Sequence record: NZ_CP022360.1
Source: a plasmid
Length of the DNA stretch: 10,479 bases
Direction: 5' to 3' (one strand)
A program made the position numbers and the translations under genes. Shown here piece by piece: positions 2,412 through 10,479 of this stretch. The notes beneath the pieces are model-generated. The model was not told the DNA's origin, made no database searches, and was given only the letters and a program-made list of their open reading frames with translations. Positions within the stretch are counted from its first letter, which is position 1, and every line of letters starts with the position of its first letter.

Positions 2412-3281
2412 TTAACGACCTAAATACACAGCAGTAACTTGTAACCGGCTATGCCCTAACTCACCGGTTATCACAGTTCTGGCGTACCTATCAGCGGCTT
2501 GTTGCGCCGCGGGTAATGAACCAACAGAAACACCCGATACCGCCGGACATTCAAAACCGGTCAGTTCCACATAACGGCGATGAGCGTAGCTGTGCCTTAA
2601 CCCATGTGCCCTATCCAATCCAATTTTTATACAGGTATTTTCATAGCGTTTCATTTGCTGCACATAACTGAGTTCTTTCGGAATAAGCGATCTGCCGGCA
2701 GCTAATGCTTTCGCCTCTGCCAATAGTTCATGCTGAGCAGCCGTTAAAATCTGGATCGCGCGATCTCGACCGCCTTTGCACCAGGACGCATCAAGTACCA
2801 AACGATCACCCCGATCCGCTTTCGCCGGCTGGATCTTCATGGCTTCTTCACGCCGTAATCCAAACGCTGCCTGCAGGCGCAAGGACATTTGCACATACTG
2901 ATCGGTTATCAAATTTAGTCGCATATCACTCAATTTTCGGCTCTTATTTTCATTGGTGACATACACTCTACGGCTAATCCCCACCGAGTCATTGGAGCGC
3001 GGTATAAGGCCATTTTTACCGATTTTTTCCGCTAACCACCGTAGATGTGCCATACGATTTTTAATCGTGCCCAGGGCAAGGCCCTCAGCTTGCCAATGAG
3101 TAACTAATGCTTCGATGTGCTTAGGTTTTAAATTATTGAGTTTAAGCCCTTTAAAACCCAAGGCAACGAGCTGTTTATCGACTAATTTTATGGTTTTGAA
3201 TCGTTCTGATTTAGTCGCAAAAGAGCTTGGGTTGTGCTGCCGCAATAGCTTGCTGGCCTCAAAAAAGAAATTGGTCGCCAT
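2412..3281 (-). CDS. Tyrosine-type site-specific recombinase/integrase, 289 aa
   Basis: Catalytic signature is present: LRREE (Arg I), HGLRHSYAHRRY (H-x-x-R box II), LGHSRLQVTAVYLG (His/Tyr nucleophile region). AAGGTG lies 4 nt before the ATG. Confidence 0.9.
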   Translation of the reverse strand: MATNFFFEASKLLRQHNPSSFATKSERFKTIKLVDKQLVALGFKGLKLNNLKPKHIEALVTHWQAEGLALGTIKNRMAHLRWLAEKIGKNGLIPRSNDSVGISRRVYVTNENKSRKLSDMRLNLITDQYVQMSLRLQAAFGLRREEAMKIQPAKADRGDRLVLDASWCKGGRDRAIQILTAAQHELLAEAKALAAGRSLIPKELSYVQQMKRYENTCIKIGLDRAHGLRHSYAHRRYVELTGFECPAVSGVSVGSLPAAQQAADRYARTVITGELGHSRLQVTAVYLGR

Positions 3282-3288
3282 AATGCAC

Positions 3289-3310
3289 CTTGAAAAAGTT
3301 ACACAATCAA
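3289..3310 (-). promoter_or_regulatory. Near-duplicate (20/22) of the 2385-2406 promoter element, immediately upstream of the integrase RBS. On the minus strand it reads TTGATTGTGTAACTTTTTCAAG, but it lacks a good -10.
   Basis: Plus strand cttgaaaaagttacacaatcaa versus cttgaataagttacaaaatcaa. Confidence 0.5.
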
Positions 3311-3333
3311 AAAATAGAATTTAATTTTGAGAT

Positions 3334-3363
3334 AAAAAGCACGCCCATTCGGGCGTGTTTTAA
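3334..3363. terminator. Bidirectional intrinsic terminator: AAAAA GCACGCCC ATTC GGGCGTG TTTT
   Basis: 7-bp GC-rich stem 3340-3346 / 3351-3357. T-run 3358-3361 on the plus strand. On the minus strand the stem is followed by CTTTTT. Confidence 0.55.
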
Positions 3364-3708
3364 GAGGAATATATTTCTCGAGGGCTAACAACACGGCGAC
3401 CTATTTCTAGGCCATTTCGGAATTCAGTTCAGTGTTAATGCTCGTTCTGACTGCCGACACAGAAAGAACCCACCGGCAAACCGGTGATATTGAGCGAGTG
3501 TTGTTACGGGCAATTGCCCAAATGGTGTGGCTCTGTTGAGCGCAAACATCCAAATATAATGACCCATAAGCTCTGTTGAGCTTGGAGATTACTAGGTGAT
3601 CAAAGAGGTTTCGTTATTTGGCATCAATGGATGCGAGGTGAAGAAACTTGACTGTACCTCATGCTAAATTACAGCGCAAGCCACTGCTTCGGCGTCACGC
3701 CTCAAAAA

Positions 3709-3807
3709 GCAAAAAATGACGCTACCCCCGCATGAGGAACACCATTTGGGGGTAGTGTCACTCCCTTAAAATGGAGTGACACTACCCCGCTTGACGTCAT
3801 TTTTTGC
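3709..3807. repeat. Nested inverted-repeat element: outer 13-bp IR GCAAAAAATGACG / CGTCATTTTTTGC enclosing a perfect 16-bp-stem hairpin (GGGGTAGTGTCACTCC-cttaaaat-GGAGTGACACTACCCC) and a competing 8-bp stem (CTACCCCC / GGGGGTAG). Contains TGACGTCA.
   Basis: Coordinates read directly: 3709-3721, 3722-3729, 3748-3755, 3749-3764, 3773-3788, 3795-3807. Confidence 0.7.
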
Positions 3808-3999
3808 TCATTGAAAGAACTAGCCACTTTGCTCTTGGCGATAGACTTCGCTAATCACCTATCGCTCAGAGGCCCTAAAATGCGTTTTAAGCAACATTTT
3901 TAAAAAATGGCATGTTGCTATACGTTTATCTTTTTAGCGGGTTTTACAGCGTTTTAACCATGTTAGCATTGATGATAGAGGTGGATTTACCTCCTTCCT

Positions 4000-4270
4000 G
4001 CTAGACCTGAGCGAAGCGATGCTTTTAGCAAGAAGTACAGCACGTTTGTTGTTAAACGGTCGGAGACAAACGGAACTAATAGCGAGGTTTTTATGCTCGC
4101 CCCTAGCGAAGCTAGGAAATGGCGAGGCATTAATGGGTAAGGGTGGAGCCTTTAGGCGAACTAGGGCGAAGCCCTTGGTCGCGGCGCAGCCGCTGCTCTT
4201 GGGGGCGCCGGAAACGAGCGAAGCGAGGGGAAGGGCCGGCGGGGGCAAAGCCCCCTGGAGGGGTTCTTAC
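4000..4270. other. GC-rich island (non-coding by my reading) with a cluster of tri-loop mini-hairpins: CCTAGC-GAA-GCTAGG (4102-4116), GGGC-GAA-GCCC (4162-4172), GCGGC-GCA-GCCGC (4182-4194), GGGGGC-AAA-GCCCCC (4241-4255). GAGCGAAGCGA is repeated at 4010-4020 and 4216-4226.
   Basis: Contrasts with the AT-rich surroundings. Contains the GCGAAGC motif four times. The ORF-track frames here (3934..4248 minus, 4019..4285 plus) overlap each other and give low-complexity Ala/Arg/Gly-rich translations. Confidence 0.6.
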
Positions 4271-4284
4271 TTCCCGAAATTTTA

Positions 4285-4500
4285 AAGTTTTCCACATGAT
4301 TTTTACTTTGTAAGATCTTTATCTTTCTTGTTTGTATAGATCTTTCTTGTTTGTAGCACCTCTGAACACCTTGATACGCAATGATTTCAGCGGTGATAGG
4401 TGGAGAGATTTACGGTGAAAAGCACTTTATAGGAGGAGAGATTTACGGTGAAAACAGAACTGATAGGTGGAGAAATTTACGGTCATATCCACAAATTAAA
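4285..4500. other. Vegetative replication origin (oriV) of an iteron-type theta replicon: DnaA-box-like TTTTCCACA (4288-4296), AT-rich tract with GATC at 4314-4317 and 4339-4342 and a 16-bp direct repeat ATCTTTCTTGTTTGTA (4321-4336, 4340-4355), iteron array, DnaA-box-like ATATCCACA (4485-4493)
   Basis: Classic layout directly upstream of a Rep_3-type rep gene. Confidence 0.75.
4395..4486 (+). repeat. Three iterons, about 27 bp each, consensus (G/T)ATAGGWGGAGARATTTACGGTGAAAA, at 4395-4421, 4428-4454, 4462-4486, with 33-34 bp periodicity
   Basis: Direct repeats read from the sequence. Confidence 0.8.
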
Positions 4501-4569: not shown

Positions 4570-5262
4570 ATGAATTCAAAACTTGCAGTAACGAAAGCAA
4601 ATAGCCTTTTAGATGCTCGATATAGACTTAATGTACAAGCACAAAAGTTGGTTTTAGCCTGTCTGAGCAAGGTAGATCCTCGACCAGATTCAACCCCGTT
4701 AAAAGAGGTCAGGTTATCAGCCCTAGAATTCTCAGAACTTATGGGGATAGATATAAAAAACGCGCATAGAGAGCTATACAAAGCGGCAGATTTACTTTTT
4801 AAATCAACCATAACGCTCTATGAGAACGGTGAAGAAATAGAACTATATTGGATTCAAGAAAAAGCAAAAAAAATTAAAGGTGATGGTGCAGTTAGGTTGG
4901 TTTGGTCTGATCGCGTATTAAAATACATAACTCAGCTAAAGAGTAATTTTACTACCTACAAATTACGCAACATCGCAAATCTTCAGTCTGCACACTCGAT
5001 CCGTCTTTACGAACTGCTTTCACGTTTTAACGACAAAAACTTTAGAAACATTAGTCTAGATGATTTCAGATACGCATTAGGCGTCGATGATAAATATCCG
5101 CTTTTCAAAGATCTAAATAAATGGGTGATAAAGCCTTCCGTTCAAGAATTAAACCAGCGGAGCGATCTTGTTATCACATACGAAACCATCAAACATGGAA
5201 GGAACGTAACCGCACTAGCTTTCACCCTGAAACCAAACAAACAGTTGAAAATGGATCTCTAG
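4570..5262 (+). CDS. repA: Replication initiator protein, Rep_3 (RepA/RepB iteron-binding) family, 230 aa
   Basis: N-terminal NSLLDARYRLNVQAQKLVLACL is the hallmark Rep_3 motif. Iterons and DnaA boxes lie immediately upstream. No obvious SD. Confidence 0.9.
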   Translation: MNSKLAVTKANSLLDARYRLNVQAQKLVLACLSKVDPRPDSTPLKEVRLSALEFSELMGIDIKNAHRELYKAADLLFKSTITLYENGEEIELYWIQEKAKKIKGDGAVRLVWSDRVLKYITQLKSNFTTYKLRNIANLQSAHSIRLYELLSRFNDKNFRNISLDDFRYALGVDDKYPLFKDLNKWVIKPSVQELNQRSDLVITYETIKHGRNVTALAFTLKPNKQLKMDL

Positions 5263-5356: not shown

Positions 5357-5803
5357 ATGGCAAAGTTAAATCTAAGTCAGGCTGCTAAAGTAGTAGGTAA
5401 GAACAGGGTTACACTTTGGCGACACATCAACGCTGGCAAGCTTTCAGCAGAAAGAGACCGTGACGGAAATCCATTAGTTGATACATCAGAACTACTTCGT
5501 GTTTATGGAGTGCTGAAACAAGATGCAACACATGAATCAGAAAAAAAGCAACACAATGAAACACCATCATATGAAGAGCTTTTGCAGCTAGTAAAAGAAA
5601 TGCGGAAAGAGCAATCTGAAATGAAATCGCTCATTCTCGACTTAAGCAATAGGCTTGAATACAAACCAGAAAACCCAACATTTCAACATGATTATGTAAC
5701 GAAATCAAAGCCTGAATCAGACCCTGAGTGGCCAAAAGAAGTTAAAACGCTAGCAGATATAATGTTAAGAAATGAAATTAAGGCTAAATACCTCAAAGAC
5801 TAG
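5357..5803 (+). CDS. Helix-turn-helix DNA-binding protein, about 148 aa, immediately downstream of repA (RepB-like accessory gene, as seen in Rep_3 small plasmids); acidic/charged C-terminal half
   Basis: MAKLNLSQAAKVVGKNRVTLWRHINAGKLSA has an HTH signature. Alternative in-frame starts at 5348 (ATG) and 5333 (TTG) cannot be excluded. Confidence 0.7.
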   Translation: MAKLNLSQAAKVVGKNRVTLWRHINAGKLSAERDRDGNPLVDTSELLRVYGVLKQDATHESEKKQHNETPSYEELLQLVKEMRKEQSEMKSLILDLSNRLEYKPENPTFQHDYVTKSKPESDPEWPKEVKTLADIMLRNEIKAKYLKD

Positions 5804-5944
5804 CATTAAACGCTCCCCTAGCCTCAATAGCTACCTTCACGTTGGTGTGCTTCTTGTTGGCTATAGCGCATACTTTGGATAGTAAGGTGCTCATATCGTC
5901 CCTCTTAAAAACAATCCCCATTGATAAACGATAGAGTGTGATAA

Positions 5945-5959
5945 TTTTGCAATGCAAAA
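5945..5959. repeat. Palindrome family copy 4, inverted orientation (TTTTGCAATGCAAAA); its reverse complement carries the same TTATC flank as copies 1 and 2. Lies 36 nt beyond the toxin stop.
   Basis: Central base A versus T, plus the flank, define orientation. Confidence 0.85.
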
Positions 5960-5994
5960 ATGTATTACAATTGAAATACACAAATAAGTGAAGA

Positions 5995-6351
5995 TTACTT
6001 ATAAACCAAGCAATGATTAATCAACTGATTCTGTATACTTTGCCGTTGGCTCAAAAAAAGTAGCACTGTAATAAGGGCTTCACCATTAACGTAGCTAACC
6101 TCGTACAGTATTCTAAAGTCCTCTTTAATCGCATGCCTTACCTGAGTAACGCCAAGCTCAACTAACTCTTGGCATAACGCATGGCTCAAAGGATTTTGCG
6201 TCACGGATGATTCAAAGGCATCAATAACAGCCTCAATTCTCTCGATAATCGAGATCTCGTCATTCCATTGGGAGTAGTGAGATATGGCGCTATCTACGGT
6301 GTCTTCAAATGTCTTGGTATATTCCAGTTTCACCACAGACATACTACTCAT
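5995..6351 (-). CDS. RelE/ParE-superfamily toxin (partner of the Phd/YefM antitoxin), 115-118 aa
   Basis: N-terminal VKLEYTKTFEDTVD and C-terminal DFRILYEV...ITVLLFLSQRQ fit the RelE/ParE pattern. The start overlaps or abuts the antitoxin stop: ATG at 6351 or, better supported by the SD, ATG at 6342. Confidence 0.7.
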   Translation of the reverse strand: MSSMSVVKLEYTKTFEDTVDSAISHYSQWNDEISIIERIEAVIDAFESSVTQNPLSHALCQELVELGVTQVRHAIKEDFRILYEVSYVNGEALITVLLFLSQRQSIQNQLINHCLVYK

Positions 6352-6601
6352 CCTTTAAAGCGAGTTTACGATTAGCCAAACGCTCCTTGAATACACTTGA
6401 TGAGATCGTGCGACCATTTTGTTGATCACTTTTCGCAAAACTGACCAACTTCAGTAAAGCAATCGCCTCATCGCGTCGATTTCTATCAGCAACCGACTCA
6501 ATAACGTAAGCAGGGACACCATTTTGAGTAATAATCATCGGCTCATCGAGGGGCAAACTCGCTGCATTTTTCTTCAAAAAACTGATTGTTTCTATGTTCA
6601 T
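6344..6601 (-). CDS. Phd/YefM-family antitoxin, 85 aa
   Basis: MNIETISFLKKNAASLPLDEPMIITQNGVPAYVIESVADRNRRDEAIALLKL is a typical Phd/YefM N-domain. The gene is upstream of, and overlapping, the toxin gene. Confidence 0.85.
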   Translation of the reverse strand: MNIETISFLKKNAASLPLDEPMIITQNGVPAYVIESVADRNRRDEAIALLKLVSFAKSDQQNGRTISSSVFKERLANRKLALKDE

Positions 6602-6733
6602 AAGTTTGTGCCTGGTTGATTGATTAGAAATAAGGGAACCCCATTCACTATGGCAATAATCATATCATGCGACACACTAAAGACCAAAAAAAGACCAAAT
6701 TTAGCCTTTCTTTAATGAGGTAATGTTAATGCA

Positions 6734-6752
6734 TTTTTTGCATTGCAAAAAA
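6734..6752. repeat. Palindrome family copy 5: TTTTTTGCATTGCAAAAAA (19 bp), 11 nt after the stop of the small recombinase gene. Its left flank TGTTAATGCAT resembles the left flank of the reverse-complemented copy 4 (TGTAATACAT).
   Basis: Exact palindrome. Confidence 0.85.
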
Positions 6753-6762
6753 GGATATCGAC

Positions 6763-7395
6763 TTACCCCCAAGCATTCATCACTAAGCTGTGCCGTTCTT
6801 CACTCAGTACCTGCAGATAAATTTCCGTGGTTTTACTGTCGCTATGGCCCATGAGTTGACTGATCACATGCAGAGGTACTGGAGGATTAGCCGTGACCAT
6901 TGCCACGCCAAAGCCATGCCGTAAACCTTTACCGGTCGCTTGCGCCCCCACAATACCCGCTCTGTGCATGACACGTTTCACTAGGCGATAAGCGGTAGGT
7001 CGACTCTGCGGCCATAACAGACTATCAGCATGAATCTCACGGCGTAGCTGTGCACGCAGGCCAAACACCAAATCCAAGTGCTCAATCAAAGACGGCGGCA
7101 CCGGCACACTGCGATACTGTGCTTGCTTCAACCGGCCATGGGGATCTGTTTTGTGTTTCTTAAGGGAACGAATAACGATTGCCGCATCCTCGACCATCAC
7201 ATGCCTGGGCGAGATCGCTAATGCCTCAGACGGGCGACAACCGGTGTAATGCAGGACATGGCAAAACATCCGCTCACTTGGCGATTCTAAGGCACTGGCA
7301 TCGAGGAAACGCCGCCGTTCTTCAGCGGTTAAATACAACCGCTCACCATCAGGCGTAAATAGGCGCATTTCAGGGGCAATATCGGGGTTTTGCAT
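6763..7395 (-). CDS. Small tyrosine recombinase, catalytic domain only, 210 aa, FimB/FimE-like in size and layout
   Basis: R (CRPSEAL), K (KKHKTD), GLRHGFG (H-x-x-R), MGHSDSKTTEIYLQV (His/Tyr). The LTAEERRRFLDA...TGCRPSE segment parallels the FimB N-terminus. No clear SD; the start could instead be the Met 9 codons downstream (MRLF...). Confidence 0.8.
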   Translation of the reverse strand: MQNPDIAPEMRLFTPDGERLYLTAEERRRFLDASALESPSERMFCHVLHYTGCRPSEALAISPRHVMVEDAAIVIRSLKKHKTDPHGRLKQAQYRSVPVPPSLIEHLDLVFGLRAQLRREIHADSLLWPQSRPTAYRLVKRVMHRAGIVGAQATGKGLRHGFGVAMVTANPPVPLHVISQLMGHSDSKTTEIYLQVLSEERHSLVMNAWG

Positions 7396-7399
7396 GGGG

Positions 7400-7430
7400 T
7401 TGAATCAGTTCTCTAGAGATTTGATTCATC
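7400..7430. repeat. Near-palindrome TGAATCA-gt-TCTCTAGAGA-tt-TGATTCA immediately upstream of the small recombinase gene
   Basis: 7-bp arms plus a 10-bp central palindrome. Confidence 0.7.
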
Positions 7431-7493
7431 TTAAGGGAAAAAACCGCCCCAGAATAGCCGCAAACGGGGCAATAGGGCGGGTTTTAGGGGCTC

Positions 7494-7524
7494 GCGTGAA
7501 TCAGTCTGGTGTAGAGTGATTCAC
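7494..7524. repeat. Inverted repeat CGTGAATCAGTC-tggtgta-GAGTGATTCACG (12-7-12 with one mismatch; 9 bp perfect), a layout like a tyrosine-recombinase core site
   Basis: Read directly. A GC-rich hairpin-prone segment (7438-7490) separates it from the 7400-7430 repeat. Confidence 0.7.
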
Positions 7525-7535
7525 GAACTCGGTAA

Positions 7536-7967
7536 TTAACAAACGCATGATGTGTTAGTTTTTTCATTGAGATAATCGATTGCGAATTCAATATAAGACA
7601 ACAAATCCTCTACGTATCTAGGGAAAGAATACTCGGCATCATCAGGTTCTAAGTTTATTGTAGGTAACAACGAAATATCAATTTCATCGTTAAAATGCGG
7701 GTATATTTTATGTGTAAGGTAATTACGACGAACAATTATAAACGATAAGATCTCACTAAGTTCATCAGTCACTAATTCAGATGATTTACAAGTACTAGCA
7801 AGCTGACCTAGCATTGCTCGTTCGAGATCATATTTGACCTGAATATTAGCGGTGAGAACAACAGATTTTAGAGCTGACTCCAATTTACCAGACATCAAAA
7901 TCAGACGCCCCAAGCTTTCACAAAATCTCTCGCTCTTAAGCAACTCTTCATAAAAATCTAGAGACAT
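7536..7967 (-). CDS. Hypothetical alpha-helical protein, 143 aa, with an R-N-x-x-x-H-x-x-Y motif (RRNYLTHKIY) like HEPN RNase active sites; function unknown
   Basis: ATG at 7967 with AGGGGT about 9 nt upstream. The ORF-track start at 8051 has no SD, so it is less likely. 20-nt gap to the upstream gene, so operon-like. Confidence 0.6.
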   Translation of the reverse strand: MSLDFYEELLKSERFCESLGRLILMSGKLESALKSVVLTANIQVKYDLERAMLGQLASTCKSSELVTDELSEILSFIIVRRNYLTHKIYPHFNDEIDISLLPTINLEPDDAEYSFPRYVEDLLSYIEFAIDYLNEKTNTSCVC

Positions 7968-8071
7968 GATGCGATTACCCCTGAACACATAATAACCAAA
8001 TAATAAACTGCTGCCGAACACTTTAACAGTTAGTTTGTCTTTAAAAATCATTCGTTTTCAACAAAAAATCG

Positions 8072-8605
8072 CTATTCTTGAATAAGTTTTTGCCATTCCA
8101 TATTTAGAGTATCAAAAGCCGCTTTGCTCCCTGTAAAATCAACAATTCCTTGTTCTATCCGGTAAGCACTTGAGCCAGAACGATGTTTAACAGGTGCAGT
8201 TGTAACCTCAAATCTTACTTGGCTTTCATCCATTTTTATAAAGCTTTCTTCAGTTAGTGAATCTAGCAACTGATTTTTGAATAAACATTTTGTACTACCC
8301 CTATATTTTTGTGAGCCATAAAAACTAAGATATAAGTCCCTCTCTGAAAAAATGGATTTATTTATATATCCATAAAAACCTTTACCCCCAAAACACCAAA
8401 CAAGCCCAACTGGAATTGTAGGTAACTCACCAATTGCAGGCTTGATCAACATTAGGCTTACAGAATCACCATTTTGAATTTTCCATAAATACCAACCTTG
8501 GTATTTATGGATCAAATTAACAAAAAATCCAAGGCTATATTCTTCATAATAGCCCACATCAAAATCACGCTCTGATGAGCCCCAAAATTTAGATAACCAC
8601 CCCAT
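8072..8605 (-). CDS. Hypothetical protein, 177 aa, aromatic-rich (many W/Y/F), no recognisable motif
   Basis: ATG at 8605 with GAAGGTG 5 nt upstream. Clean ORF. Confidence 0.7.
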   Translation of the reverse strand: MGWLSKFWGSSERDFDVGYYEEYSLGFFVNLIHKYQGWYLWKIQNGDSVSLMLIKPAIGELPTIPVGLVWCFGGKGFYGYINKSIFSERDLYLSFYGSQKYRGSTKCLFKNQLLDSLTEESFIKMDESQVRFEVTTAPVKHRSGSSAYRIEQGIVDFTGSKAAFDTLNMEWQKLIQE

Positions 8606-8722
8606 ATAACACCTTCATATCATTACATTCTAGCTATAAAAACTGTTGAAGATTACGAAAGCAACGATCGCACCGAAGGAGCGAATAAACTCAAACACAG
8701 CAGTTATAACTACCGCAACTTA

Positions 8723-9232
8723 CTAAAAATCGTTAATGCCTCCGATTGAATCTTCGCTTCGCAAGATAGTCTCAAATGTTTTTGCCATTAATCCAAATTT
8801 TACTAAAATTTGGTCGTATCCATACTTGGATGGCAATGTCCATGCAACACATTCGGAGCCAGCAGGTACACCGGATAGAAGTTCGAGTTGTAATCGAGCT
8901 TTACCATCTTTTGCAAGAAATCTAATATCATAGCTAGAGTAACAGTATGGGCTGATCGCTGAGTCAATCATCTTCCACTGAACAAGCCCTTTACCAATTA
9001 AAGAACCTTCAGATTCATCCTCAACTCTCATTACTTCCTTGCTATCACCATAAACTGTAGCAATGTGATTTCTGGCTTTTTTCCACAATTCAAGCTTCTC
9101 ACCCTTTAAGTCTAAAAAGGTATAAATTTGTGGTTGGATATCTGATTGTGATATTGGATAACTTGATGAATCAGTGCTTGTACAACCTTGTATTGAAAAA
9201 GTAAGTAAAAGGCTAAAAATTATATTCTTCAT
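8723..9232 (-). CDS. Putative lipoprotein, 169 aa: signal peptide MKNIIFSLLLTFSIQG followed by Cys
   Basis: ATG at 9232 with GGAG 8 nt upstream. A hydrophobic h-region is followed by an IQGC lipobox-like motif. Confidence 0.65.
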   Translation of the reverse strand: MKNIIFSLLLTFSIQGCTSTDSSSYPISQSDIQPQIYTFLDLKGEKLELWKKARNHIATVYGDSKEVMRVEDESEGSLIGKGLVQWKMIDSAISPYCYSSYDIRFLAKDGKARLQLELLSGVPAGSECVAWTLPSKYGYDQILVKFGLMAKTFETILRSEDSIGGINDF

Positions 9233-9710
9233 TTAATAAACTCCGAAACTTAATTTGCTTGCTAAGATTTATTAATCTGCATACGTGTCTAACTTATTAG
9301 ATAGAAAATCGCGCACTTTTTAAGACAAACGTATCAGTTTTTCGTCAAATACGCTATGCGCATCCGGCGTTTTTCAACGCCTATTATCTAACCTACATAA
9401 AATTTAAATAATTAAATTTTAATTGTTTTATCTTTATAGCCTTGGGATAACGCATACGTATATTGACTAAAATGCATTCGAAAATAAGAAATTTTGAATA
9501 TAACCGTATAACGATTATGTTTTGACACTAGTAGTGAATAACGCCGAGCAGAAAAATTGTAGGCCAATGAGATAACCAGTGTCTGGTTAAGCGCTCGGCA
9601 CTCAGGCAGTTAGGGAAAAGCGCATTAACCCGAAGCCAGCGTAAAATGACGGCATTTGGGTCTGATTCACTAAAATGTGGGCCTAATTAGCAATGGCAAA
9701 TAGCTCTGTG

Positions 9711-9745
9711 TTGATTACTATAAATCAAAAGTGTACAATGTACAC
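9711..9745 (+). promoter_or_regulatory. Sigma70 promoter TTGATT (9711-9716), 17-nt spacer, TACAAT (9734-9739) for the toxin-antitoxin operon. Two operator-like palindromes: TTGATTactataAATCAA (9711-9728) over the -35 and GTGTACA-A-TGTACAC (9731-9745) over the -10.
   Basis: Read directly from the sequence. Confidence 0.7.
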
Positions 9746-9773
9746 CTTGAGGGTAGCATAAGGATTTTGATTA

Positions 9774-10109
9774 GTGAGCCATGCTATTGAGTTTGTCGAA
9801 ACCTCGATCTTTACAAGACAGATCAAAGAACTTGCAACAGATGACGAACTAAAGGATTTGCAAGCAGAGCTTATTGCTCAGCCAGATAAAGGCGATATTA
9901 TCAAAGGTACAGGTGGCTTACGAAAGGTTAGAATGGCTGTAGGCAACAAAGGGAAGAGTGGCAGTATACGAGTGCTATACGTCCTTGCTCTGGCCGACAA
10001 GATTTACCTGGTACTCGCTTATCCAAAATCAGTTAAAGAGAGCCTAACTGCGGAAGAAAAGGCCAAGTTAAAACAAATCGTTCAATCACTTAAAGGAGAG
10101 AGCAAATGA
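9774..10109 (+). CDS. RelE/ParE-superfamily toxin, HigB-like / phage-related killer type, with toxin-first gene order, 111 aa
   Basis: GTG start with AAGGA 10 nt upstream. GGLRKVRMAVGNKGKSGSIRVLYVLALADKIYLVLAYPKS matches the G-G-x-R-K-x-R...GKSGG-x-RVIY...YPK pattern of this family. 4-nt overlap with the downstream HTH gene. Confidence 0.8.
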   Translation: MSHAIEFVETSIFTRQIKELATDDELKDLQAELIAQPDKGDIIKGTGGLRKVRMAVGNKGKSGSIRVLYVLALADKIYLVLAYPKSVKESLTAEEKAKLKQIVQSLKGESK

Positions 10110-10393
10110 GTATATTTAACGAACTTCAAGCCTCCCTTGAGGAAGCTGTAGAAATTCATCATGGCCTCAAAAAGCCCGCCAGAGTAACGCGTTATGAGGT
10201 TGCCGACGTTAAGTCAATCCGTGAAGATTTACTTAAAGTCACGCAGGCCGAATTTGCTGCGACTATGGGGGTCAGTTTAGACACAGTTAAAAGCTGGGAA
10301 GGTAAACGCCGCAATCCAGCAGGATTGGCAGCTAAAGTGCTTGCAACGATTCAGCAAGATCCCAAAATCTACGCTGTTCTTGCTGCTCATTAA
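10106..10393 (+). CDS. XRE-family HTH antitoxin (HigA-like), 95 aa
   Basis: VTQAEFAATMGVSLDTVKSWEGKRRNP is a classic HTH_XRE. ATGA overlap with the toxin gene. Confidence 0.85.
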   Translation: MSIFNELQASLEEAVEIHHGLKKPARVTRYEVADVKSIREDLLKVTQAEFAATMGVSLDTVKSWEGKRRNPAGLAAKVLATIQQDPKIYAVLAAH

Positions 10394-10398
10394 TATTA

Positions 10399-10425
10399 TT
10401 CAAAGGCTCTTCTTGGGCCTTTGAA
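10399..10425 (+). terminator. Hairpin TTCAAAGGC-tcttcttgg-GCCTTTGAA after the higA-like stop; weak terminator candidate with no long U-run
   Basis: 9-bp perfect stem. Confidence 0.35.
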
Positions 10426-10479
10426 TTAACCAACATCTTAAGCATTCGGTAGCTATGATAAATATGTTTGCTATACCGT

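Follow-up and report, generated by a model that had tools for sequence, protein, structure and literature searches.

A catalytic-domain-only tyrosine recombinase with putative cognate sites: a probable resolution locus and exchangeable cassette on a small Shewanella-type plasmid

Why does a small plasmid carry a 210-amino-acid (aa) tyrosine recombinase gene with two palindromes directly upstream and a lone half-site 2.1 kb away? The locus lies in NZ_CP022360.1, a stretch of 10,479 nucleotides (nt) analysed here in full and called the window. The window is a small Shewanella-type plasmid that matches contig PEGD01000004.1 of assembly GCA_002738015.1, and it is probably circular, since its ends join in the related plasmid L001 (related plasmids and contigs are given by such locus numbers). 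The original prediction, made from this stretch alone, proposed that a FimB/FimE-like recombinase might invert or excise a segment between the repeats. Our comparisons with related plasmids and with homologues in other genera point elsewhere: we think it probable that this is a recombination and resolution locus joined to an exchangeable cassette, with the cassette bounded by sites of two classes, S2 and S3. The features concerned are as follows.

6763-7395, minus strand: tyrosine recombinase gene, 210 aa, catalytic domain only (PF00589).
7401-7428: S1, a 28-base-pair (bp) palindrome, TGAATCA-GTTCTCTAGAGATT-TGATTCA (7-14-7), 5 nt upstream of the recombinase ATG.
7438-7485, minus strand: hairpin with a U-run (A6-stem-T4 on the plus strand), a candidate intrinsic terminator.
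7497-7523: S2, 27 bp, TGAATCA-GTCTGGTGTAGAG-TGATTCA (7-13-7); read as 12-7-12 with one mismatch it spans 7495-7525.
7526-9659, minus strand: accessory cassette with three genes (7536-8051, 8072-8605 and 8723-9232) and a 427-nt non-coding leader (9233-9659).
9660-9670: S3 relic, consisting of the right arm GTCTGATTCAC only, the reverse complement of GTGAATCAGAC.

The 210-aa protein matches PF00589 over residues 21-198 (E = 1.9e-15; 57.5 bits against a cut-off of 27.1) and has the R-K-H/K-R-H/W-Y active site, which together place it in the tyrosine recombinase superfamily. Residues R54, K79/K80, K156, R159, H184 and Y193 do not vary across 11 homologues and, read from the sequence, the open reading frame (ORF) and active site are intact. 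The family is large, with members uniformly of ~200-215 aa, and the nearest solved structures are remote Xer proteins (E = 2e-8 and weaker). Named subfamily models in NCBIfam, for Xer, IntI and Fim-type invertases, were all failed by this protein: XerD scored 41.6 bits against a cut-off of 329.6, XerC 35 against 335, and the integron-integrase models TIGR02249 and PRK15417 scored 37 against 265 and 35 against 435. The Fim-type invertase model PRK09871 aligned to residues 18-81 only (E = 1.5e-4) and reached 21.3 bits against a cut-off of 222; the protein is thus of FimB/FimE size, as had been claimed, but not of that family. In our literature searches (pSXM33, Shewanella multimer resolution, the site strings and Shewanella accessory modules), we found no description of the recombinase family or its sites.

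All three repeats that had been noticed are present in the sequence and form one site family. The first palindrome had been placed correctly at 7400-7430, and the second had rightly been read as 12-7-12 with one mismatch, although its coordinates (7494-7524) were one base off. The centre of S1 is an 8-bp palindrome, CTCTAGAG, while S2 has an asymmetric spacer, TGGTGTA; the two centres are 95.5 bp apart and the segment between the sites is 68 bp. With up to two mismatches, the arm motif GTGAATCAGTC has eight matches in the window compared with 2.17 ± 1.40 expected, and none of 200 shuffles reached eight. With at most one mismatch, it matches both arms of S2 and the distal copy, and nothing else. 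Because ~0.17 chance matches to an 11-mer are expected in the window at this stringency (our own estimate), the distal copy on its own is only marginally significant. The three-repeat observation is solid, because homology to related plasmids stops at 7524/7525, the edge of S2, and restarts at 9660, the edge of the distal arm.

Do S1 and S2 belong to the adjacent recombinase? We compared homologues from Sedimenticola, Roseomonas, Aquimarina, Pseudorhodobacter and Desulfosarcina, which share 42-60% identity and whose DNA has no similarity to the window. Each lineage has its own half-site (TGAAACA, TGATACA, CTGACAT, TTAACA and TTACCCA), and two upstream sites were found in four of the five, Roseomonas having the distal one only (27 bp, 7-13-7). 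Sedimenticola and Desulfosarcina show the exact geometry of the window, with a 27-bp distal site (7-13-7) and, beside the start codon, a 28-bp site (7-14-7). Pseudorhodobacter has a 27-bp distal site and a shorter proximal palindrome (26 bp as an exact match), and Aquimarina has a 28-bp proximal site and a shorter distal one. The centre-to-centre distances (95, 96.5, 84.5 and 107.5 bp in the homologues, 95.5 bp in the window) differ in steps of ~11-12 bp, roughly one helical turn, which suggests that the complexes predicted to bind both sites must face the same side of the DNA. Homologues at 59-65% identity (Desulfobacter, Candidatus Thiodiazotropha and Candidatus Vondammii) keep the TGAATCA/TGATTCA arms, two of them with one mismatch. 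Mainly because protein and half-sites vary jointly across lineages, we assign S1 and S2 to the 210-aa recombinase, and they are very probably its cognate sites. This agrees with the fallback offered in the original prediction, that the proximal palindromes are the recombinase's own operator or resolution site. The recombinase gene has rep, par or toxin-antitoxin genes as neighbours, and in Acetobacter and Roseomonas it lies among rep, par and toxin-antitoxin maintenance genes. In its layout the locus thus corresponds to a multimer-resolution locus with a tyrosine recombinase, of the Tn4430 TnpI/IRS or P1 Cre/loxP type, with probable cognate sites beside the gene, a plasmid location and maintenance genes.

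A different owner of the sites, such as a serine resolvase, the 289-aa integrase encoded elsewhere in the window or a host factor, would make the adjacency to the 210-aa gene coincidental. S1 gives some reason to consider this, since it is a 28-bp palindrome with a central TA, which is the crossover-site format of Tn3 and gamma-delta res site I. In addition, serine resolvase genes adjoin S1 in 7 of 24 plasmids (e.g. L002 3192-3818, L009 2195-2821 and L007 2387-3016), and most copies of the sites have no tyrosine recombinase gene nearby. However, these are two unrelated resolvases (27% identical) that lie in opposite orientations and at different distances from S1, and coincidence cannot explain five distant homologues with half-site palindromes of their own, which for the most part share the two-site geometry. 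The palindromes on either side of the 289-aa integrase gene are of another family, and the sites are unlike dif, with Xer models far below their cut-offs. We consider another owner improbable. A serine-resolvase res site was rejected as a candidate: the window has no PF00239 gene, the resolvase partners elsewhere are inconsistent, and the sites covary with the tyrosine recombinase.

The S1-hairpin-S2 unit (7400-7525, ~125 bp) is found in 24 plasmids of PLSDB, all from Shewanella, and exact S2 occurs at 15 loci of species-representative genomes, all Shewanella except for one contig labelled Bacillota, which we take to be mis-binned. Several units lie on contigs of 145-443 kb, some of which may be chromosomal or megaplasmid. 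S1 and S2 are nearly invariant in an alignment of 16 unit copies, and S1 is kept in 40 copies. The spacer between them falls into two sequence variants, both with a GCCCC/GGGGC stem and, on the recombinase strand, a T-run after it. The flanks of the unit are unrelated between plasmids on both sides; to the right of S2, 47 copies have 29 different flanks. An identical S1 left flank and an identical S2 right flank were each found with both hairpin variants; therefore, exchange has occurred at or near both sites. The arms are perfect in every copy that adjoins a recombinase gene, whereas several orphan copies have decayed (L006, L008, L012, L013, L014, L047 and L053).

The sharp edges of the unit, its variable flanks and its several copies per genome might also be expected of a non-autonomous mobile element resembling a miniature inverted-repeat transposable element, with TGAATCA...TGATTCA ends and many insertion places. 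We regard this as very improbable: the edges show no target-site duplications, each end is a complete palindrome in itself, S2-type and S3-type sites also occur alone, and the same geometry is found upstream of the recombinase gene in unrelated genera.

The hairpin within the unit is probably an intrinsic terminator that would shield the recombinase gene from cassette transcription. Single-sequence folds were made for the window, for L007 (7-bp GC stem and U7) and for Sedimenticola (8-bp stem and U7), where the hairpin and U7 also lie between the two sites. Across 12 copies of the S1-S2 spacer, RNAalifold gave a weak consensus, and the two variants aligned out of register. A simple terminator scan of 7300-7650 found nothing.

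What lies beyond S2? As had been suspected, the gene block there is a discrete unit, since other blocks occupy the same interval and the same block occurs in other backbones. Backbones that are 99.9% identical over 5900-7524 and 98.8-100% identical over 9660-10479 hold wholly different DNA in between, and alignments with plasmids that have other cassettes break off at 7524-7530. At least eight unrelated cassettes start at the S2 outer edge and end at a third site, S3, with the sequence TGAATCAGAC-TAGGCAA-GTCTGATTCA, occurring as TGAA(T/C)CAGAC-TAGGCAA-GTCTGATTCA. S3 is 7-13-7, its orientation relative to S2 is constant, and full copies are present in L004, L005, L026, L027, L028, L034, L036, L037, L049, L051 and L053. 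The 20 copies of S3 are flanked by 15 different sequences on the left and 10 on the right. The cassettes found in the slot, apart from that of the window, include the following.

L034: AbiU2-like gene and a 160-aa ORF.
L033, L037 and L038: acyltransferase gene and a 104-aa ORF.
L036 and L044: RraB-like gene.
L039: 139-aa ORF.
L001 and L002: hypothetical gene of 253 aa in a 1377-bp block.
L005 (pS19503): DUF4238 gene.
L004 (pSXM33): 78-aa ORF.

The three-gene block of the window itself occurs with other neighbours, lying beside RelB/ParE in L027 and differing from the window in both outer flanks in L028. Site-bounded modules are thus shuffled among related backbones in the manner of dif modules, which does not imply membership of that class. 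Cassettes can also stand in tandem (S3-cassette-S3-cassette-S2-S1 in L049, 2768-5639), and sites with mixed S2-type and S3-type arms around the S3 spacer occur in L005 and L050. In every cassette examined, all genes read towards S2, on the recombinase-gene strand. In L053 (2715-4758), S3 sites are present on both sides of the S1-S2 unit.

If the locus were a resolution site and operator only, the differences between cassettes would stem from homologous recombination or illegitimate events and S3 would play no part. The two-site locus of other genera, which showed no third site within 2.5 kb, would fit this, as would the maintenance-gene setting in Acetobacter and Roseomonas, and the conserved backbone on both sides would permit homologous exchange. 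Nevertheless, the cassettes begin and end at S2 and S3 rather than at arbitrary points, in at least eight independent cases. Moreover, S3 has the arm sequence of the recombinase and many different flanks, tandem S3-bounded units exist, and mixed-arm sites have formed around the S3 spacer. We therefore judge resolution alone to be unlikely, and prefer a resolution locus with an exchangeable cassette.

The cassette proteins of the window offer few clues to function. None of the three has a Pfam (also at E up to 10), NCBIfam or PADLOC family; there is only a sub-threshold match to DUF4468, in the product of 8723-9232, which by our own reading of the sequence has a lipoprotein-like N-terminus. The 171-aa protein encoded at 7536-8051 (minus strand) includes the sequence RNYLTH, whose Rx4H pattern recalls HEPN nucleases. 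No HEPN profile matched this protein; the L034 cassette in the same slot encodes HEPN_AbiU2. The 427-nt leader shares no promoter module with any of the other cassettes, only a 35-nt match.

Some cassette ends share further motifs. A loosely conserved hairpin, GCTCA-TTTTGGGACAAAA-TGAG, lies to the right of S2 or S3 in L033, L034, L036, L039, L006, L007, L009, L049 and L053; it has no attC core sequence and is absent from the cassette of the window. A ~45-nt motif (TTAGCCCnAAGC...AAAATG) stands beside the S3 left arm at many loci. These motifs may be accessory sequences of the sites or cassette terminators.

The lone half-site of the window was correctly noticed, but it is a relic of a full S3 that is still present in sister contigs. 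L026 represents the same plasmid with the same cassette and a full S3, and direct comparison shows that the window lacks exactly 21 bp, CGTGTGAATCAGACTAGGCAA, comprising the S3 left arm and spacer. The same cassette with a full S3 is also present in L024, L027 and L028, and the deletion is common to the window, L021, L023, L025, L029 and L030. The deletion stops exactly where spacer and right arm meet, and tyrosine recombinases cut at spacer/arm junctions; we infer that an aberrant recombinase event, with cleavage at this presumed position, removed the 21 bp. Because the left arm and spacer were lost, the cassette has no competent distal site, and the three genes are most likely immobile now. 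That the window copy still excises or inverts, as originally envisaged, is correspondingly unlikely. Separately, in the sister plasmid L024 (3578-4926), an insertion sequence (IS) element with a DDE_Tnp_1 transposase lies within the S3 spacer. IS elements target pdif sites in Acinetobacter, and the L024 insertion recalls them.

Can any segment of the locus invert? A Fim-like phase switch would turn expression on and off by inverting either the 68-bp S1-S2 segment or the 2.1 kb that separate S2 from the distal arm. The size of the recombinase, its lack of an N-terminal domain, the weak PRK09871 match and the inverted orientation of the distal arm relative to the S2 left arm would all suit such a switch. 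The invertase model scores far below its cut-off (21 bits against 222), however, and the comparative data show no inversion. Both flanks of the cassette are visible in seven assemblies, which come from different samples and agree on its orientation, and the S1-S2 spacer has a single orientation in all ~40 unit copies, with no S1/S2 hybrid sites. That segment bears a terminator-like hairpin rather than a promoter. A metagenome scan for the inverted junction gave no matches, a weak negative from a scan without a positive control. The central regions of the three sites also differ (CTCTAGAG in S1, TGGTGTA in S2 and TAGGCAA in S3), and the distal site of the window lacks one arm and its spacer. 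Since tyrosine recombinases require matching overlap regions, S1-by-S2 and S2-by-S3 reactions are not expected. The spacer differences fit like-with-like exchange between replicons, the route proposed for dif modules (PMC13141974). On these sequence comparisons, the locus is not a Fim-like invertible element, and we see hardly any room for a phase switch.

We propose that the locus works as follows, in the order cassette, S2, terminator hairpin, S1, recombinase gene. One recombinase dimer would bind each palindrome at S1 and S2. With its asymmetric 7-bp spacer, S2 is the likely strand-exchange site and would serve both multimer resolution and plasmid cointegration. S1, which lies in the translation-start region, would act as an operator and accessory site for autorepression and synapse assembly, a role similar to that of the accessory motifs of TnpI (PMC2847244), and is possibly a crossover site as well. 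The hairpin would halt cassette transcripts ahead of the recombinase gene. In Shewanella, S3 would be recognised by the same recombinase, so that S2 and S3 form a heterospecific pair bounding an accessory slot. Cassettes could then be swapped between co-resident replicons by S2-by-S2 and S3-by-S3 exchange, with a cointegrate followed by its resolution. Where S3 sites stand in tandem, excision and integration by S3-by-S3 exchange might also be possible.

Several observations weigh against this model. A complete recombinase gene is present in only five Shewanella plasmids of PLSDB, and the gene is not adjacent to the unit in 19 of the 24 plasmids and 13 of the 15 genome loci, while the two serine resolvases adjoin S1 in seven of the plasmids. 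In pSx1 and the FDAARGOS_354 plasmid, a serine resolvase gene replaces the 5' part of the recombinase gene and leaves the 3' end, with one breakpoint exactly at the outer edge of S1. The contrast between intact gene-adjacent copies and decayed orphans comes from copies that are not phylogenetically independent. In other genera, the 2.5 kb around the homologues showed no third site, the empty S2/S3 junction had no matches in Joint Genome Institute (JGI) metagenomes (in a scan without a positive control), and some cassette exchanges could be homologous rather than site-specific, through the shared end motifs. For expression, a sigma-70 scan of 7300-7650 found no promoter for the recombinase gene, and the terminator call is shape-based, with fold z-scores that are not significant.

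How does the locus relate to known systems? Small Acinetobacter Rep_3/OrfX plasmids consist of a conserved backbone with accessory and toxin-antitoxin modules bounded by short tyrosine-recombinase sites. There, pdif reactions are reported between sites with identical or near-identical spacers, movement through cointegrates is proposed, and dif modules, which use the host XerC/XerD system, are described as unique to Acinetobacter (PMC13141974). The window, too, is a Rep_3 plasmid with a small helix-turn-helix (HTH) ORF downstream of rep. Its sites differ in their arms, TGAATCAG(A/T)C, and in being 7-13-7 or 7-14-7 rather than 11-6-11. Unlike XerC/XerD, its recombinase is encoded by the plasmid itself and has only a catalytic domain, scoring 35-42 bits with models that require ~330. 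Whereas C and D modules alternate, the S2/S3 relative orientation is constant here and the cassette genes are co-oriented. A Xer/dif site was rejected as a candidate, as the S sites have no dif similarity and the Xer models fell far below their cut-offs.

A second comparison is TnpI/IRS of Tn4430, a ~120-bp locus where a core crossover site and accessory motifs give resolution selectivity (PMC2847244). Here too, several probable motifs for one tyrosine recombinase are clustered beside its gene; the 95.5 bp between S1 and S2, and a spacing that shifts by ~11-12 bp from genus to genus, are in keeping with such an arrangement. In contrast to TnpI/IRS, the motifs are two palindromic dimer sites rather than an inverted-repeat core with direct-repeat accessory motifs. 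The 210-aa protein has no N-terminal DNA-binding domain and no transposon context. Integrons also have a recombinase gene beside a primary site and promoter-poor cassettes in one orientation, which in L049 stand in tandem with a repeated site. Unlike integrons, the sites are double-stranded palindromes and not folded single-stranded attC, the cassette genes read towards the recombinase gene, and the junction has a probable terminator instead of a Pc promoter. An integron was rejected as a candidate, with IntI models at 35-37 bits against 265 and 435. Finally, FimB/FimE invertases share the ~200-aa catalytic-domain-only format and inverted half-sites, but their family model does not recognise this protein and no invertible segment was seen. 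As far as its sequence tells, the locus resembles parts of dif modules, TnpI/IRS loci and integrons, and is a member of none.

A broader proposal is more tentative, and we hold it to be possible rather than probable. Shewanella plasmids and some chromosome-size contigs may carry a self-contained cassette-exchange system with a minimal recombinase and three heterospecific site classes, and the wider family, with its 27-bp and 28-bp double site, may constitute a new class of plasmid locus for resolution and module exchange in the Pseudomonadota, Bacteroidota and Thermodesulfobacteriota sampled here. If true, this would be a second, independent module system with its own minimal recombinase, and site-bounded plasmid building would have evolved more than once. 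It would also offer a compact three-site set with shared arms and different spacers, resembling the heterospecific sites used for engineered cassette exchange. Since Abi-like, DUF4238, toxin-antitoxin-adjacent and lipoprotein genes are found in the cassettes, defence and surface functions may move among Shewanella replicons through this slot. For the window, the phase-switch reading is corrected, and the cassette has probably been fixed by the 21-bp deletion.

The recombinase family also occurs on chromosomes. The homologues in Candidatus Thiodiazotropha and Candidatus Vondammii (L059 3657-6351; L055) have TIR, SMODS, SLATT and toxin-antitoxin genes as neighbours. TIR, SMODS and SLATT genes are of the kind found in defence systems of the cyclic-oligonucleotide-based anti-phage signalling (CBASS) type, and off plasmids, too, members of the family may be markers of variable defence islands.

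The rest of the window carries the plasmid backbone and a second integrase.

2412-3281: 289-aa integrase of the Integrase_1/Phage_int_SAM_2 type.
4394-4492: iterons, three 33-bp direct repeats upstream of the Rep_3 gene.
4570-5262: Rep_3 initiator gene, with the small HTH ORF downstream.
5995-6601: Phd/ParE pair.
9774-10393: RelE/HTH pair.

An Rfam scan of the whole window matched no family. The ~1.1 kb between integrase and rep iterons (3300-4400) has no convincing ORF; it holds a patch of 60% GC at 4100-4300 and a near-perfect 19-bp hairpin at 3749-3788, and is a possible origin of replication or of transfer. A 15-bp palindrome, TTTTGCATTGCAAAA, has five copies (274-288, 1942-1956, 2017-2031, 5945-5959 and 6736-6750), two of which flank the Phd/ParE module and coincide with homology breaks relative to L001 and L002 (5956/5960 and 6707/6736). 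These palindromes may mark module boundaries of a second class, or be bound by a protein. A further family of ~26-bp palindromes, ACTTGATTTTGTAAC..ATCAAGT, is found at 912-938, 1317-1346, 2384-2409, 3289-3310 and 5686-5711; two copies bracket the 289-aa integrase gene, and a palindrome of this family directly abuts S1 in L002, L008 and L009. They may be the sites of the second (289-aa) integrase. Right after the palindrome at 5686-5711, a lone S3-type arm, TGAATCAGAC, lies at 5713-5722 within a 156-aa ORF, and the equivalent place in L001 (541-571) holds a truncated S1. This suggests that an S site also received the toxin-antitoxin and recombinase segment, as a module in its own right.

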